Positions 11,409 to 39,809 of a DNA stretch of 64,000 nucleotides are shown here, one piece after another; the stretch's first letter is position 1; each line of letters opens with the position of its first letter. A program made the position numbers and the translations under genes. The notes beneath the pieces are model-generated. The model saw nothing but the letters and a program-made list of their open reading frames with translations. It was not told the DNA's origin and ran no database searches. The stretch is from Escherichia phage fp01, in sequence record NC_048731.1; one strand, 5' to 3'.

Positions 11409-11594
11409 TTATCCTCTTTCAATATCTAGAGAAATACCACAGTTAGGATTAATACCTGTACCCTTGCAATTTGGGCAAACCCATATATTGCAAAAAGTAT
11501 CTCCTGCTTCTGCATCAGAACTTTCACCAATTCCCCTACACTCAGGGCAGGCACACTTTTCTAGCTCTTGCTTGAGTTCTTGAAACTTGGACAT
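11409..11594 (-). CDS. small zinc-ribbon protein
   Basis: ORF track 61 aa; CACPEC...CPNC Cys pairs. Confidence 0.45.
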   Translation of the reverse strand: MSKFQELKQELEKCACPECRGIGESSDAEAGDTFCNIWVCPNCKGTGINPNCGISLDIERG

Positions 11595-11810: not shown

Positions 11811-11888
11811 TGGTGGCTCCCCGAGGATTCGAACCTACGTACCTTCCGGTTATGAGCCGGGTGCTCATACCATATGAGCTTGAGAACC
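11811..11888 (-). tRNA. tRNA, anticodon CAT (Met family)
   Basis: acceptor GGTTCTC/GGGAGCC, anticodon stem CCGG/CCGG with loop CTCATAA, T-loop TTCGAAT, CCA encoded; third CAT tRNA in the array. Confidence 0.6.
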
Positions 11889-12004: not shown

Positions 12005-12574
12005 TTAGAAATTTAGCTTCATAGCAAGAAAATTTTTCAAGTTTTCGGTAGACATCTCATCCACATCTACGGGAGAAACAAAGCCGTTTAATTTTCTAGC
12101 AAATTTTTCACCCGCAGGATCATTATCCCCGACAGCTACCAATTTAAAGGGTAGTAATTTCAGTTGCTTTAATAACGCTTTTCCTGGAGAAGAACCCAAC
12201 ATTGCTAGGGCTGGATAACCAGCATTATGTAATGCAACTGCCTTAAATACAGATTCAGCAATCAATACTACTTTTTCATCTCCATTGAGAGTTTCTAGTC
12301 CCCATACACACTGTGTAGTGGAGTAGGTAAAATATTTAGCCTCAAAAGGGCACTTACCATGCCCTTTTGGAGCAGAAGGATTATACGTCTGATAGCCCCG
12401 CAACATCCCAGAGAAGTCATACAATGGGACTGTTAGCCATCCTTCCGGACTTAACCAGCAATGATATTTATCTGTATCAAATCCTCTAGATAAGAGGTGC
12501 TGTGTTAGCTCATCAACATTCATATCTGGTTCCTCTCTCAAATTTATAGATATATTATACAGAGAATTTAGCAT
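12005..12574 (-). CDS. hypothetical protein with Toprim-like acidic motif (LVAVGDNDPAGEKFA)
   Basis: ORF track 189 aa; DxD-containing motif resembles Toprim domains; promoter 12554-12582 immediately upstream. Confidence 0.5.
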   Translation of the reverse strand: MLNSLYNISINLREEPDMNVDELTQHLLSRGFDTDKYHCWLSPEGWLTVPLYDFSGMLRGYQTYNPSAPKGHGKCPFEAKYFTYSTTQCVWGLETLNGDEKVVLIAESVFKAVALHNAGYPALAMLGSSPGKALLKQLKLLPFKLVAVGDNDPAGEKFARKLNGFVSPVDVDEMSTENLKNFLAMKLNF

Positions 12575-12582: not shown

Positions 12583-12698
12583 TCAAATTTTTTAACTTTT
12601 TATAGGAAAATCATAGGGCACTTAAGGGTAGCAGATAAGTGGTGAGGACCAAAATTTGTGCCCCCACTAAAAATCCGGGGGCAATTTTTAAAGACCCC

Positions 12699-12727
12699 TT
12701 GACATTTTCGCTGGGGTAGTGTAAAGT
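12699..12727 (+). promoter_or_regulatory. sigma70-like promoter (TTGACA-17-TAAAGT) for the plus-strand low-complexity cassette
   Basis: TTGACA 12699-12704, TAAAGT 12722-12727; diverges from promoter 12554-12582. Confidence 0.5.
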
Positions 12728-12789
12728 ATATGTTATGGATGAGTGATCAAAGAGACACACATTTTCTATATACTAGGAGGTGTCAAAAA

Positions 12790-13773
12790 ATGACAGAAGA
12801 AGTAGCTAAGAGTCCTGAGACCGTCGCTAGCGTTGCAGCAGAACTGCACCGTCACGAGGAATCAGATAAGAAAAAGTGGGAGAAGGTCAGAGCCTACGAA
12901 GAAAAACATCGTGAACACGATGATGAAGAAGATGATGATGAACATTGTCATAAATATGGAAAACATAAAATGCAAGAACCAGTAAACGTATTCACTAGTG
13001 GCTTCCCTGGCCTACTGGGTGGTTACCCAGCAAACGCAAGTGCTTTCGGTGGTGAAGGTATGGGACTATTCGGAGCTATCCTAATCGGTGCTCTATTAAC
13101 AGGCGGATTCGGTGGTTTCGGTGGATTCGGTGGACGTGGTGTAGTTGGTGAAGGTACCGCAGTTGATGCAGTACTTCAGAACCAAGATACCGCTAGTATT
13201 CTAGCAGCTATTAACACTACTCGTACAGAAGCTAACCAGGGTACTGGGGCTGTTTTAAGCGCAGTTAACAATGGTTTTAGCCAGACATCCCAAAACCAGA
13301 GCCGTGATACTCAGTCTGTACTAACTACGATCTATGGTACAGGTGCTAATCTGTCTAATCAGATCTGCCAGGAAACTCGCAACGTTATTCAGGGTCAGTT
13401 CGATCTTTCTCGCCAGATTGATCAATCTTTCGCAGCTAACCAGATAGCTCGTGCACAAGATAAGTTTGATTCTGCACAGATCGCTTTCCAGCAGACTTTA
13501 CAAACTAATAACCAGTTTGCCGCTGTTCAGGCTCAGATGTGTGCTAACCAGAACTCTCTGGAACGTCAGATCGCTGAATGTTGCTGTGAACTTCAGACTG
13601 CGATCGCTGGTGTAACTACTGCACGTATCCAGGATGAGTTAGACGCATGTCGCCTACGTGAAGCAATCGCTGCGGGTAGTGGTGCTAACGGTCAGGTAAT
13701 TAATCAAATCGCTTTAAGTCTTGGTGCTATCACTCAGACTCTGGCTGGTCTGCAGGCTAAACTGCCGGCTTAA
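12790..13773 (+). CDS. low-complexity protein: acidic His-rich N-terminus, Gly-zipper hydrophobic segment, Q/N/A-rich C-terminal half
   Basis: ORF track 12730..13773; start placed at ATG 12790 with AGGAGG SD upstream; GLFGAILIGALLTGGFGGFGGFGGRG segment; CCC in ...IAECCCELQ. Confidence 0.6.
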   Translation: MTEEVAKSPETVASVAAELHRHEESDKKKWEKVRAYEEKHREHDDEEDDDEHCHKYGKHKMQEPVNVFTSGFPGLLGGYPANASAFGGEGMGLFGAILIGALLTGGFGGFGGFGGRGVVGEGTAVDAVLQNQDTASILAAINTTRTEANQGTGAVLSAVNNGFSQTSQNQSRDTQSVLTTIYGTGANLSNQICQETRNVIQGQFDLSRQIDQSFAANQIARAQDKFDSAQIAFQQTLQTNNQFAAVQAQMCANQNSLERQIAECCCELQTAIAGVTTARIQDELDACRLREAIAAGSGANGQVINQIALSLGAITQTLAGLQAKLPA

Positions 13774-13794
13774 TATTAAGGGGAGGAGCCCATT

Positions 13795-14211
13795 ATGAGT
13801 AAATATGGTTTTGTAAATAACGGACTTAATCAAAGTATGGGCTCCCAGCAGCCCATTCCGGGTCTGGATAATCCCTACTTACAACAGTTGCAACAGCGTT
13901 TAGCAGAAGCGCAACAGATGCAGCAACAACTCCAGCAAAATCCTGGAAGTGTGAGTCCTATGCAAATGATGCAGCAAATGAGCGGGCAGTCGCAAATGCC
14001 TCAACAAATGCAGCAACAGATGCCACAGCAGCAAGTTCAGCAACAAACCCAACAACCGCAGGTTTCTGCGGAAGGACAGGCAGTACTAGCCCTTTTCGAA
14101 GACTTCGCAAAGACAGAGGATGGGAAGCAGCTTGTATCACTTATGGGTAAGTTTAATAGCTTCTGCCAAAGCCAAATTGCAAAAGCTCAAAATAGTGGTA
14201 ATAACTCCTAA
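13795..14211 (+). CDS. Gln-rich low-complexity protein
   Basis: ORF track 138 aa; SD GGGGAGGAG upstream; QQLQQRLAEAQQMQQQLQQ... repeats. Confidence 0.6.
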   Translation: MSKYGFVNNGLNQSMGSQQPIPGLDNPYLQQLQQRLAEAQQMQQQLQQNPGSVSPMQMMQQMSGQSQMPQQMQQQMPQQQVQQQTQQPQVSAEGQAVLALFEDFAKTEDGKQLVSLMGKFNSFCQSQIAKAQNSGNNS

Positions 14212-14220
14212 GGAGGAATT

Positions 14221-14415
14221 ATGTGTTGCAGAAAATCTGTTTCGTGCTGCCCAATGCCTGTAGCACGTTGTTGCTCTCCAGCAATGTTTACGCAAATACC
14301 GGCGTTCAATCCGTTTGCCTTTAAGCCTACTCTTATCCTGCCCCCTAGAGTAGATTTTCAGTCAAGATTGGCCTCCCGTATGGGTGGTTGCTGTAACAAG
14401 AGTATATGGTTCTAA
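14221..14415 (+). CDS. small Cys-rich protein (CC pairs)
   Basis: ORF track 64 aa; SD AAGGAGGA upstream; MCCRKSVSCCP...RCCSP...GGCCNKS. Confidence 0.5.
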   Translation: MCCRKSVSCCPMPVARCCSPAMFTQIPAFNPFAFKPTLILPPRVDFQSRLASRMGGCCNKSIWF

Positions 14416-14430
14416 AGAACCAAACAATAA

Positions 14431-14466
14431 AGCCCCTAGTCGAAAGACTTAGGGGCTTTTTCTTTT
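14431..14466 (+). terminator. rho-independent terminator (plus strand)
   Basis: hairpin AGCCCCTAGTC-GAAA-GACTTAGGGGCT followed by TTTTTCTTTTT. Confidence 0.6.
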
Positions 14467-14479
14467 TCCTTAAATACAG

Positions 14480-14510
14480 AAAAGCCCGCGCTCTCGGAGG
14501 AAACGCGGGC
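14480..14510 (-). terminator. rho-independent terminator (minus strand) after the SPFH gene
   Basis: hairpin GCCCGCGCTCTCGGAGGAAACGCGGGC with A-run 14480-14483 on plus = U-run on the minus transcript. Confidence 0.55.
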
Positions 14511-14535
14511 TTGGTTCGAAGATTACGTGTAACTA

Positions 14536-15483
14536 TTACTTGTTACGCATATCCATAATCATTTGACCATCATAGCCAGTGCCAACTACAGTCTGAGGTA
14601 CACCACCTTGATATTTCTGAGCACGAATCATCTCAACTTCCAGTTGTTTCCAACGAATCATCTCAGGAGTAATGGTACGTTGCAGTGCGGCGTTAGCTTC
14701 AGCTTCTTTCTTAGCTGCGTACAGTTTAGCATCTGCGTCACGTTCATTAGCGATAGCTTGGTTGTTGCGAGCTTCACGATCAGCTTCTGCTTGTTTAACT
14801 TTCTGCTGAGCTTCTTGTTCAACACGAGCAAGCTCAGCTTTCGCAGCATTAACTTGCTCTTCACGAACTTTGGTATTCTGTACCTGTTCCATGATTACCG
14901 GTGGCAAAGTAATATCCTGAAGGAACACCTGCTTAACTGTGTAACCATATGGGCGCGCATACTCTTCAACTTCCTGTTGAATTGCGGTTTGCAATTGAGC
15001 CTGAATTTTAGCATCAAATAAATCTTGTGCTTTAGGTACAGACTTACCAAACTCACGAATAGTAGACAGTAATTTTTCAGTTACATATTTGTCTAATGCT
15101 TGATCCTGAGTACCTGCATTAATACGGTTAATCGGTGCCTTAGAACCATCAAACTGCAACATAACAGTCAGGTCAACAGTGGATTTAAACTTATCCTGAC
15201 TAGGGACCTGAAGTTTATCTAATTTTAGAGCAATATCTTTAGTACTAAAAGTATCGAAAGAAGCAAAAGGATTTACAATATGAAAGCCGGGTAATACTGG
15301 GCTAGGGTCAACTTTACCCAGGAAAGTCTGGGTTTTAACAGTACCGTCTTGAACAACAGTGTAAGAGTTAAGAGCCAGAACTAAACCTACCAAACCAACT
15401 GCAGCCCCAATACCCCAACGTTTGATATTACGCATTAATTTTTGCTCATAAGTCAGTTCTTTAGTGTTTTTAGTAGCAAACAT
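14536..15483 (-). CDS. SPFH/band-7 (stomatin/prohibitin/HflK-C-like) membrane protein
   Basis: 315 aa; N-terminal TM helix (WGIGAAVGLVGLVLAL), SPFH-like core and C-terminal Ala/Glu/Gln-rich coiled coil (VREEQVNAAKAELARVEQEAQQKVKQAEADREARNNQAIANERDADAKLYAAKKEAEANAALQR). Confidence 0.8.
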   Translation of the reverse strand: MFATKNTKELTYEQKLMRNIKRWGIGAAVGLVGLVLALNSYTVVQDGTVKTQTFLGKVDPSPVLPGFHIVNPFASFDTFSTKDIALKLDKLQVPSQDKFKSTVDLTVMLQFDGSKAPINRINAGTQDQALDKYVTEKLLSTIREFGKSVPKAQDLFDAKIQAQLQTAIQQEVEEYARPYGYTVKQVFLQDITLPPVIMEQVQNTKVREEQVNAAKAELARVEQEAQQKVKQAEADREARNNQAIANERDADAKLYAAKKEAEANAALQRTITPEMIRWKQLEVEMIRAQKYQGGVPQTVVGTGYDGQMIMDMRNK

Positions 15484-16094: not shown

Positions 16095-16175
16095 TACCGA
16101 CCGTAGGATTCGAACCTACATCTTCCACCAGTTACGGCTTGATAATACCAATTATACTAGGACGGCAGTGTTACT
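16095..16175 (-). ncRNA. degenerate tRNA-like element (pseudo-tRNA)
   Basis: T-arm GTAGG-TTCGAAT-CCTAC and acceptor GCCGTCC/GGTCGGT are present, but the D-arm is aberrant and no anticodon stem can be drawn. Confidence 0.35.
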
Positions 16176-39398: not shown

Positions 39399-39809
39399 AT
39401 GACTACTCCAACTCAGTGGACTGATGAACTGTTCGAAAAAATGTCTTCCGAATACGTTGCTCGTATGGAGCAATTCCCAGAGGATGAACGTCCGGGTGTT
39501 AGCATGGAAATTGTTAGCGAAATTGCCCAAGAAAATGGTGTAACTCCGAACGGTTTTCGTATGAAGCTGACTAAAGCAGGTTTGTATATCAAGAAAGCTG
39601 CTGGCTCTGCTTCTAAATCTAGCGCATCTACAGGAGAAAAAGCTTCTGGTGGTTCTCGTACTTCCAAAGCCCAAGCTCATGCCGACCTTCGTTCAGCATT
39701 CTCTGATGCTGGCCTAGCACCAGATTTTCTGGATGATGCAATTATCGACAAACTGACCGGTAAAGCGGCTGCTCATCTGGCAGAAGCAATCCGAGCTATC
39801 ACTAAGTAA
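39399..39809 (+). CDS. hypothetical protein
   Basis: ORF track 136 aa; AAGGAAATATAAAAT ATG context. Confidence 0.5.
   Translation: MTTPTQWTDELFEKMSSEYVARMEQFPEDERPGVSMEIVSEIAQENGVTPNGFRMKLTKAGLYIKKAAGSASKSSASTGEKASGGSRTSKAQAHADLRSAFSDAGLAPDFLDDAIIDKLTGKAAAHLAEAIRAITK

Follow-up and report, generated by a model that had tools for sequence, protein, structure and literature searches.

A mobile three-gene operon of T5-like phages and the membrane-anchored coiled-coil complex that it may encode

Escherichia phage fp01 (sequence record NC_048731.1) carries, in the midst of minus-strand genes, three plus-strand genes enclosed by a promoter and a terminator of their own, and their low-complexity products raise the question of what kind of unit this cassette is and what it does. 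It was analysed within a stretch of 64,000 nucleotides, referred to here as the window. The window has 23 transfer RNA (tRNA) genes on its minus strand and hence takes in at least the early/tRNA region of a phage of the Tequintavirus type. In a match against phage records, the 2-kilobase (kb) stretch with the cassette is 98.7% identical to Escherichia phage PNJ1902 and ~90% identical to T5. The analysis shows a three-gene operon that is autonomous, mobile and dispensable, yet selected. On balance, we read the cassette as an autonomous, horizontally mobile accessory operon (a moron) whose products would form a membrane-anchored coiled-coil complex.

A self-contained, dispensable and mobile operon

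The operon comprises the following elements, given in positions of the window; the products of genes 1, 2 and 3 are called P1, P2 and P3.

12699–12727, plus strand: sigma70-type promoter (P12 of T5), TTGACA and TAAAGT separated by 17 nucleotides, 10 of 12 consensus matches
12776–12781, plus strand: Shine-Dalgarno site of gene 1, annotated as a ribosome binding site in Salmonella phage 5
12790–13773, plus strand: gene 1 (homologue of T5.077), open reading frame of 327 residues from the ATG preceded by the Shine-Dalgarno site
13795–14211, plus strand: gene 2 (homologue of T5.078), open reading frame of 138 residues
14221–14415, plus strand: gene 3 (homologue of T5.079), open reading frame of 64 residues
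14429–14470, plus strand: intrinsic terminator of the cassette, 13-base-pair stem and U-tract

A preliminary description, made from the letters of the DNA, had proposed an oppositely oriented three-gene unit between its own promoter and terminator; every one of these elements is in place, and existing annotation agrees. The T5 record (NC_005859) lists T5.077, T5.078 and T5.079 between 'promoter P12' and an 'efficient bidirectional rho-independent transcription terminator', and the Salmonella phage 5 record (AJ604531), in which P12 is also annotated as a promoter, lists 'ORF 327aa', 'ORF 138aa' and 'ORF 64aa'. The genes, promoter and terminator are to this extent already known from GenBank, where all three products are labelled hypothetical proteins, as they have been since the genome annotation of T5, a classic model phage. 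Of the lengths first given, 138 and 64 residues hold, whereas the largest protein has 327 and not 328 residues; an alternative start at the ATG at 12730 would extend it to 347. The Shine-Dalgarno sequences were rightly described as strong before all three genes (AGGAGG, GGGGAGGAG and AAGGAGG, with a spacing of 5–8 nucleotides to each ATG).

The P12 site is kept 55–62 nucleotides 5' of the gene 1 ATG even in T5-like relatives whose P1 is only ~43% identical, and TTGACA-17-TA(A/G)AGT stands at a matching distance from the ATG in T5 and in the distant T5-like contigs L005 and L006. Promoter-like sites as such are not in excess in the region, six being found against 7.9 expected from shuffled sequences. 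At the other end, the terminator hairpin (14429–14459), followed by UUUUUCUUUUU, has a folding free energy of −20.2 kcal/mol (z −4.85, with 0 of 200 shuffles as good), and it folds on the minus strand too. The three genes have a G+C content of 0.457–0.469, against 0.393 for the window; part of this difference may reflect the Ala/Gly/Gln-rich composition of the proteins. With its own promoter (a site identified by sequence), its own terminator, a differing base composition and its presence or absence in collinear relatives, the cassette has the anatomy of a moron.

The absence in relatives is best followed from the features that flank the cassette.

12005–12574, minus strand: Toprim/primase-like gene, left-hand neighbour
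14482–14512, minus strand: second hairpin, terminator of the convergent SPFH gene, 12 pairs, −20.7 kcal/mol
14536–15483, minus strand: SPFH/band-7 gene, convergent right-hand neighbour, Pfam expect value (E) 2.5e-17

Among the 407 phage records that match the query, 216 cover the cassette, and the remaining ones align only to its last ~200 nucleotides or less, that is, to the terminator region and the end of the SPFH gene. By tblastn, gene 1 was found in ~218 T5-like records and an intact gene 3 in 220. About half of the T5-like records have no cassette, and both Tequintavirus and Epseptimavirus have members with and without it; hence it is accessory. The gene directly next to the SPFH gene is the primase-like one in DT57C and Bas33 (HildyBeyeler), and a nicotinamide-nucleotide adenylyltransferase gene in atrejo, which also has no cassette. 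Alignment of the junctions places the right-hand deletion boundary at the second hairpin. Bas33 has kept promoter P12 and the beginning of the 5' leader, followed by the second hairpin, while DT57C has lost the promoter and kept the last ~25 nucleotides of gene 3 together with a terminator. These different remnants indicate that an ancestral cassette was deleted twice, independently. Absence from close relatives, which the preliminary description had regarded as grounds for refutation, does occur, and it speaks for dispensability rather than against the reality of the unit.

Where the cassette is retained, the ratios of nonsynonymous to synonymous substitution rates (dN/dS) between the window and T5 and Epseptimavirus relatives show purifying selection on genes 1 and 2, with values of 0.15–0.17 for gene 1 (at dS 0.45–0.67) and 0.15–0.29 for gene 2. 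For gene 3, which offers very few sites, the ratio is noisy (0–1.6); P3 of the window is 100% identical to that of T5.

The module is not confined to T5-like phages. Genes 1, 2 and 3 in complete order, with a terminator-like hairpin, were found in at least four non-T5 backbones, the contexts traced being those of the closer P1 homologues (36–47% identity to P1 of the window). They comprise that of the Pseudomonas phages RSP and KPP23 (63 kb), an N4-like contig that encodes the virion RNA polymerase, one further phage contig, and a lambdoid contig (L023) in which the module lies in opposite orientation between the antiterminator Q gene and the holin/lysozyme/Rz genes. The interval from Q to the lysis genes is a classical moron slot. 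Distant T5-like contigs, in which P1 is ~43% identical, keep the whole module as well. A terminator-like hairpin follows gene 3 in all eight contexts examined, the one in the lambdoid copy being weak.

In four of four non-T5 copies, a further open reading frame of ~50 residues with a Zn-ribbon motif lies just 5' of gene 1, in divergent orientation.

L023 5744–5917, minus strand: Zn-ribbon open reading frame
L043 6756–6911, minus strand: Zn-ribbon open reading frame
L042 6759–6914, minus strand: Zn-ribbon open reading frame
L011 4435–4581, minus strand: Zn-ribbon open reading frame

Its product has the motif CPxCG...CPECGxWFxKxRxxQxYCxPxCRxRK and a basic tail, gave only sub-threshold matches to generic zinc-ribbon and NinG families in a Pfam scan, and may be a dedicated regulator of the module; the window and T5 have no counterpart. 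A scan of IMG/VR returned T5-like phages only. With the two motifs used, 185,579 genomes of bacterial species yielded no prophage copy, and the lambdoid version was not found in 5,426 complete E. coli genomes.

A functional tie between the cassette and the neighbouring SPFH gene was considered and rejected, since that gene, labelled 'lipoprotein' in many records, is retained in phages that lack the cassette (DT57C, atrejo and Bas33). Among the called genes of the module-bearing contigs L023, L042 and L043, no Band_7 Pfam match is listed.

Some smaller features were noted along the operon. Just 5' of P12, a GC-rich hairpin at 12659–12683 (GCCCCC...GGGGGC, −13.9 kcal/mol) is followed by AATTTTT and may shield the cassette from upstream transcription; its statistics are weak (z −2.3), and it is partly deleted in Bas33. 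Just past the cassette terminator, T5 has an annotated 'major DNA single-chain interruption' at 39746–39747 (nick consensus Pu-GCGC), whose counterpart in the window, AAGCCCGCGCTCTC, falls within the second hairpin. The starts of the three genes (12790, 13795 and 14221) are all congruent to 1 modulo 3, so that they share one reading frame. The same is seen in T5, Lindwurm, NBEco001 and UTK0010 and not in PRF-SP12 or GreteKellenberger, and the shared frame is hence probably a coincidence.

Predicted architecture of the three proteins

The composition of the proteins was described correctly at the outset, with an acidic, His-rich N-terminus and a CCC motif in P1, a poly-Gln P2 and four CC pairs in P3. 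P1 matches PHROG 8119, a family of unknown function, over its full length (E 3.1e-203). Its AlphaFold model, computed from a 37-sequence alignment with a mean predicted local distance difference test score (pLDDT) of 73.8, is essentially one long helix. The following parts can be told apart.

12817–12912, plus strand: N-terminal helix of P1, residues 10–41, pLDDT 87–96 for residues 11–40 (AlphaFold)
13060–13128, plus strand: Gly-zipper hydrophobic segment of P1, residues 91–113, GMGLFGAILIGALLTGGFGGFGG, presumed membrane anchor
13189–13761, plus strand: single predicted alpha-helix of P1, residues 134–324 (AlphaFold)
13579–13587, plus strand: CCC motif of P1, Cys264-Cys265-Cys266 (TGT TGC TGT), within ...RQIAECCCELQ...

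Residues 1–70 have a net charge of −8 and contain seven His, and Epseptimavirus versions have long His runs (HHYHHHHHEH...). The N-terminal helix holds an 'AAEL..HE..D' motif that is conserved in an alignment of homologues (A1). In the same alignment, residues G90, G92, G95, G100, L102, G106, G109, F113 and G114 of the Gly-rich segment are invariant. The top-scoring hydrophobic 19-mer of P1 is LFGAILIGALLTGGFGGFG, with a Kyte-Doolittle value of 1.72; AlphaFold leaves the Gly-rich region disordered, apart from a short helix at residues 94–103 that corresponds to the hydrophobic core. From this composition, membrane-associated or aggregation-prone proteins had been suspected. Membrane association is upheld for P1, where the Gly-rich hydrophobic segment is conserved and a transmembrane-like segment occurs in 52 of 131 members of its family, but not for P2 and P3, which have no hydrophobic segment (maximum Kyte-Doolittle values of 0.46 and 0.85).

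For the Q/N/A/T-rich part of P1, AlphaFold predicts a single long helix instead of disorder. The helix is unbroken between residues 134 and 324, with block-mean pLDDT values of 86–97 over residues 161–270, and its ~190 residues at 0.15 nm per residue would measure ~28 nm if straight. An uninterrupted predicted helix of this length suggests a coiled-coil stalk. Apart from the CCC motif (264–266), Cys residues are located at positions 53, 193, 251 and 287. The most conserved part of the protein is formed by the last ~25 residues (NGQVINQIAxSLGAITQTLAALQAK), as seen in a second alignment (A7) of the closer homologues, that is, the T5-like, N4-like, lambdoid and Pseudomonas-phage versions; here I304, N305, Q306, I307, A308, S310, L311, Q316, L318, A319, L321, Q322 and K324 are invariant.

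Homologues of P1 were collected with a word-indexed search, which returned mostly T5-like contigs, and then with an exhaustive profile search (E ≤ 1e-3), which extended the family to 132 cluster representatives in phage-type contigs of several kinds. Judged by these profiles, P1 belongs to a large unannotated superfamily, here delimited and called 'CCC-helix', whose members are covered by no Pfam family. Their hallmark is the motif ...AECCCE(L/I)K...R(I/L)(R/Q)DEL... inside a long helix; a Gly-rich membrane segment may precede the helix, and P1 fits this description. Across the 37 sequences of the superfamily alignment, no column other than those of Cys264, Cys265 and Cys266 is invariant, and 95 of 131 family members contain CCC.

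The charges around the membrane segment are unevenly distributed. In the 52 membrane-anchored members, the 20-residue N-terminal flank contains 19 Lys and Arg residues versus 46 in the 25-residue C-terminal flank, and 28 of 42 short N-tails have no Lys or Arg at all. Together with the positive-inside rule, this bias would place the stalk and CCC in the cytoplasm, so that N-out/C-in is most likely the topology of the family. A cytoplasmic stalk would also fit with P2 and P3 having no signal peptide and with some family members being soluble. Cys residues are almost restricted to the C-terminal part (2.74 per 100 residues versus 0.21 per 100 elsewhere).

Phage contigs with lysis genes of Gram-positive type (CHAP/CW_7, Amidase_2/3) carry distant P1 homologues 3' of these genes, and one homologue, in a temperate phage, lies directly before the integrase gene. 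In two of the Gram-positive-type contigs (L012 7112–10012 and L004 3170–4193) the homologue is flanked by low-complexity proteins, among them a Q/Y/P-rich protein of 185 residues, a Q/M-rich one of 81, RGG/SY-rich ones of 143 and 174, and proteins of 155–161 residues with CxCGC motifs; the whole set is without a Pfam match.

P2 matches PHROG 7894, likewise a family of unknown function, over its full length (E 6.4e-80), and its family is confined to the phages that carry the cassette module. Gln makes up 38 of the 138 residues (27%). A conserved helix at residues 27–48 (YLQQLQQRLxEAQxMQ) is followed by a Q/P/M-rich linker that varies in both length and sequence and all but disappears in some homologues (101–107 residues), and by a nearly invariant hairpin at residues 92–134 (S.EGQAVLALFEEFAKTEDGKQLVSxMGKFNSFCQS..AK) with one conserved Cys. 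The AlphaFold model (mean pLDDT 59) shows the hairpin as two helices at pLDDT ~80. As the Q-stretch varies while the flanking helices stay conserved, it behaves as a spacer, that is, as a disordered linker of variable length between two conserved helical elements. In several GenBank relatives P2 is misleadingly named 'cAMP-dependent protein kinase catalytic subunit', a name that probably arose via poly-Q similarity.

P3 is a basic protein rich in Cys, Pro and Phe, with an FNPF motif; it starts with MCCRKS and has its Cys residues at positions 2/3, 9/10, 17/18 and 57/58, which makes 12.5% Cys in CC pairs only. It has no hydrophobic leader, gave no PHROG or Pfam match and has no relatives outside cassette contexts. 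Gene 3 is usually missed by gene callers and is mostly unannotated; in phage RSP its product bears the misleading name 'alpha/beta hydrolase like protein'. In every context examined, a P3-type open reading frame follows gene 2 and precedes the terminator-like hairpin. Seven of eight aligned representatives over five backbones start with MCC, the lambdoid copy starting with MSCNCGCGG, and most of the eight have further CC pairs and an FNPF-like motif. P3 was also compared, as a possible Rosetta-stone counterpart, with the Cys/Pro-rich C-terminal tail of P1 homologues from the Gram-positive-type contigs; a profile-profile probability of 0.2% led us to reject this relation, and the likeness is one of composition only.

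Since the three genes strictly occur together and in one order in five backbones, and since the C-terminus of P1 is conserved along with the hairpin of P2, we infer that P2 and P3 are partners of P1.

A possible membrane complex and its alternatives

Taken together, sequence and structure prediction suggest the following arrangement. P1 would be a single-pass inner-membrane protein whose 190-residue helix oligomerises into a stalk of ~28 nm, with the invariant CCC layer as a thiol staple, formed by metal-thiolate bonds if cytoplasmic or by disulfides if outside. P2 would act as an adaptor, in which two helical binding elements are joined by a flexible Q/P tether, and P3 as a Cys/Pro-rich peptide that joins the complex via its CC pairs. 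Such a complex would stand outside replication, morphogenesis and canonical lysis and could serve in conflict at the cell membrane. We tentatively consider a role in phage-phage or phage-envelope conflict, for example superinfection exclusion, based on the moron anatomy, the moron slots in temperate phages, the repeated loss, which would be neutral in the laboratory, the transfer between phage families and the possible regulator. More doubtful is the wider proposition that the T5 copy represents a widespread phage-borne system, in which a Cys-stapled coiled-coil stalk of ~28 nm in the inner membrane, with P1 as founding member of the CCC-helix superfamily, a tethering adaptor and a Cys/Pro-rich peptide would make up a new membrane-level exclusion, defence or sensing device that moves among unrelated virulent and temperate phages.

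Several observations weigh against a membrane-anchored coiled-coil complex encoded by an autonomous accessory operon, or against the conflict role. In the non-T5 copies of the module, no consensus sigma70 promoter was found within 300 nucleotides upstream of gene 1. The hydrophobic periodicity of the P1 helix peaks at 3.6–3.7 residues and is no better than in shuffled sequences, and hence nothing is claimed on heptads versus hendecads. For T5-type P1 the topology is ambiguous, as an N-tail of ~90 residues with ~12 Lys and Arg argues against its export. No model in PADLOC, Pfam, NCBIfam or the PDB sequences matches P1, P2 or P3, so that a conflict or exclusion role is drawn from context alone; matches of the three proteins and of distant homologues to RIFIN, Granulin and the ZorA tail were set aside as chance-level. 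Finally, the soluble family member P0044 (167 residues, L020 7001–7504) is encoded between the genes for an SU10-type major capsid protein and an adaptor, with non-coding gaps of ~340 and ~180 nucleotides beside it. A place in the head-gene block of an SU10-like phage hints that at least some members of the family are structural, and P0044 could be a head fibre, a decoration protein or a moron within a structural operon. No mention of T5.077–T5.079 was found in the searchable literature, and searches on T5 deletion mutants, on the accessions of the cassette proteins and on prion-like phage proteins gave nothing relevant. The only Tequintavirus transcriptome and proteome found concerns Bas33, which itself lacks the cassette (PMC13250531).

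The position of P0044 is also what speaks for P1 being a structural protein, namely a coiled-coil fibre or decoration protein, stapled by disulfides, that belongs to the virion or to a structure on the cell surface. The Q/N/T/S/A-rich, charge-poor composition of the helix resembles that of fibres, and CCC could staple a trimer once released into an oxidising medium. Mass spectrometry of KPP23 virions, however, identified nine proteins, and the P1 homologue KPP23_074 is not among them (PMC4031330). In T5 the cassette lies in the early/tRNA region behind an early-type sigma70 promoter, P1 has a membrane segment, and phages without the cassette have normal virions. A virion role is thus unlikely for the T5 and KPP23 versions of P1, and we regard a fibre or decoration function as highly doubtful. 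A role as lysis accessory, in which P1, a membrane protein, would resemble a spanin or regulate the holin and act on the envelope at the end of infection with P3 as its proline-rich partner, draws on four contexts in which P1-family genes adjoin lysis genes (L004, where a CHAP endolysin and a holin come first; L012 and L015, where a holin or amidase does; L023, where the module is back to back with holin, lysozyme and Rz). Like Rz/Rz1 spanins, the cassette combines a membrane-anchored, long Cys-bearing helix with a small proline-rich partner encoded just downstream. Yet P3 has neither signal peptide nor lipobox, its first Cys residues being at positions 2–3, and P2 adds a third component that Rz/Rz1 do not have. 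The charge bias of the family suggests that the helix of P1 is in the cytoplasm (N-out/C-in, as opposed to N-in/C-out for an i-spanin), with the reservation made above for the T5-type N-tail, and homologues occur with Gram-positive-type lysis genes, where the presumed hosts have no outer membrane. T5-like phages encode separate holin, endolysin and i-/o-spanins elsewhere (PMC4342426, PMC11664485), DT57C and Bas33 are viable without the cassette, and its promoter is of the early type. The slot just after the lysis genes is also usual for morons. We therefore rejected a canonical lysis or spanin role, and an accessory one appears improbable.

A module that binds or buffers Zn, Cu, Ni or Fe-S at the membrane through the His/acidic N-terminus and CCC of P1 and the CC pairs of P3 is similarly improbable. 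The long His runs of Epseptimavirus P1, the invariant CCC, the high Cys content of P3 and the concentration of Cys in the putative cytoplasmic part of P1, where thiols more often bind metals than form disulfides, would agree with it. Against this, the His-rich tract is missing from the distant T5-like, N4-like and lambdoid versions of P1, CC pairs are not a classical chelating motif, no metal-binding family is matched, and a benefit for the phage is not evident. The 27% Gln of P2, together with the Q/Y/P-rich and RGG/SY-rich neighbours of P1 homologues in the Gram-positive-type lysis contigs, would suit a low-complexity scaffold, that is, a condensate or aggregate at the membrane formed by P2 and its partners, which comes close to the 'aggregation-prone' proteins of the preliminary description. 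The spacer behaviour of the Q-stretch, nearly absent in some homologues with the flanking helices conserved, argues against it and makes it quite improbable. That the open reading frames are non-functional, being chance frames or decaying remnants in a non-essential region, might be suspected from the absence of the cassette in about half of the relatives and from gene 3, which gene finders usually leave uncalled and whose dN/dS is noisy. It is extremely improbable in view of the dN/dS values of genes 1 and 2, which stay at 0.15–0.29 at dS up to 0.75, of a gene order, Shine-Dalgarno sites and terminator kept over five backbones with P1 identity down to ~38%, and of CCC, which is invariant in 37 aligned members as well as present in most of the family.

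The reading as a mobile accessory operon that makes a membrane-anchored coiled-coil complex can be set against known systems. Phage morons (lambda bor/lom, stx between Q and the lysis genes, HK97 gp15) also have their own promoter and terminator and a differing G+C content, are patchy among close relatives and are inserted between functional blocks, as is the lambdoid copy in its Q-to-lysis slot. Unlike typical morons, the cassette has three genes instead of one, its carriers are mainly virulent (T5-like, N4-like and KPP23-like phages), and its proteins resemble no characterised moron product. The kind of element is thus known, while its content matches nothing characterised. Exclusion proteins (T4 Imm/Sp, P22 SieA, T5 Llp, Cor, Sie2009 and HK97 gp15) are likewise dispensable, expressed early or from prophages, membrane-associated and patchy; however, the known envelope exclusion proteins are single small proteins, and the cassette proteins have no sequence or profile similarity to them.

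With regard to architecture, ZorA of the Zorya system has a long coiled coil that is anchored in the inner membrane and projects into the cytoplasm, as P1 would. One P1-family member weakly matches the ZorA tail region (E 0.005, which is chance level for coiled coils), but P1 has no MotA-like multi-pass domain and the cassette no ZorB, ZorC or ZorD partners, and it is not a member of Zorya. In bitopic proteins of the ZipA type, a P/Q-rich tether comes after an N-out/C-in anchor. P1, with an N-terminal anchor and most of its chain probably cytoplasmic, and P2, with a flexible P/Q-rich linker between putative binding elements, recall this design; in contrast to ZipA, the tether is on a separate polypeptide, and there is no FtsZ-binding domain and no sequence similarity. 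Cys-stapled coiled coils are known from COMP and matrilin, with an interchain disulfide ring, and from designed three-stranded coils with Cys3 metal sites. P1 is like them in having a Cys layer inside a long helix that is predicted to oligomerise, and unlike them in having three consecutive Cys per chain, which is unusual. Metallothioneins have a very high Cys content with CxC/CxxC clusters; P3 has 12.5% Cys, in CC pairs only.

According to the literature searched, it appears to be new that one mobile module is common to unrelated phages and is lost by independent deletions, and that its main protein belongs to a large unannotated family; the architecture predicted for P1, P2 and P3 likewise appears to be new. 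An anonymous cluster of low-complexity open reading frames thereby becomes a well-delimited candidate for an accessory function of the conflict type, being one mobile unit that T5-like, N4-like, lambdoid and Pseudomonas phages share, that is lost repeatedly yet maintained by selection, and whose main protein founds a large family. Nature offers isogenic-like pairs that differ in the cassette, for example in the BASEL collection, where Bas26, Bas27 and Bas32 carry it. Should an exclusion or defence role hold, a new membrane-anchored coiled-coil design would join the known systems; should it not, the cassette would still illustrate cleanly how morons are exchanged between virulent and temperate phages.

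Further elements near the cassette

Beyond the operon and its direct neighbours, Rfam reported two tRNA-like elements, both on the minus strand and neither reported by ARAGORN. The one at 11814–11888 (40.3 bits) is at the position of T5 tRNA-Ile2(CAU), and the one at 16095–16166 (35.5 bits) falls within the region annotated in T5 as the stable 'RNAX'. Amid the tRNA genes, a minus-strand open reading frame of 61 residues at 11409–11594 encodes two CPxC-type motifs (CPECRG...CPNCKG) and is zinc-finger-like; it is unrelated to the Zn-ribbon open reading frame of the non-T5 module copies.

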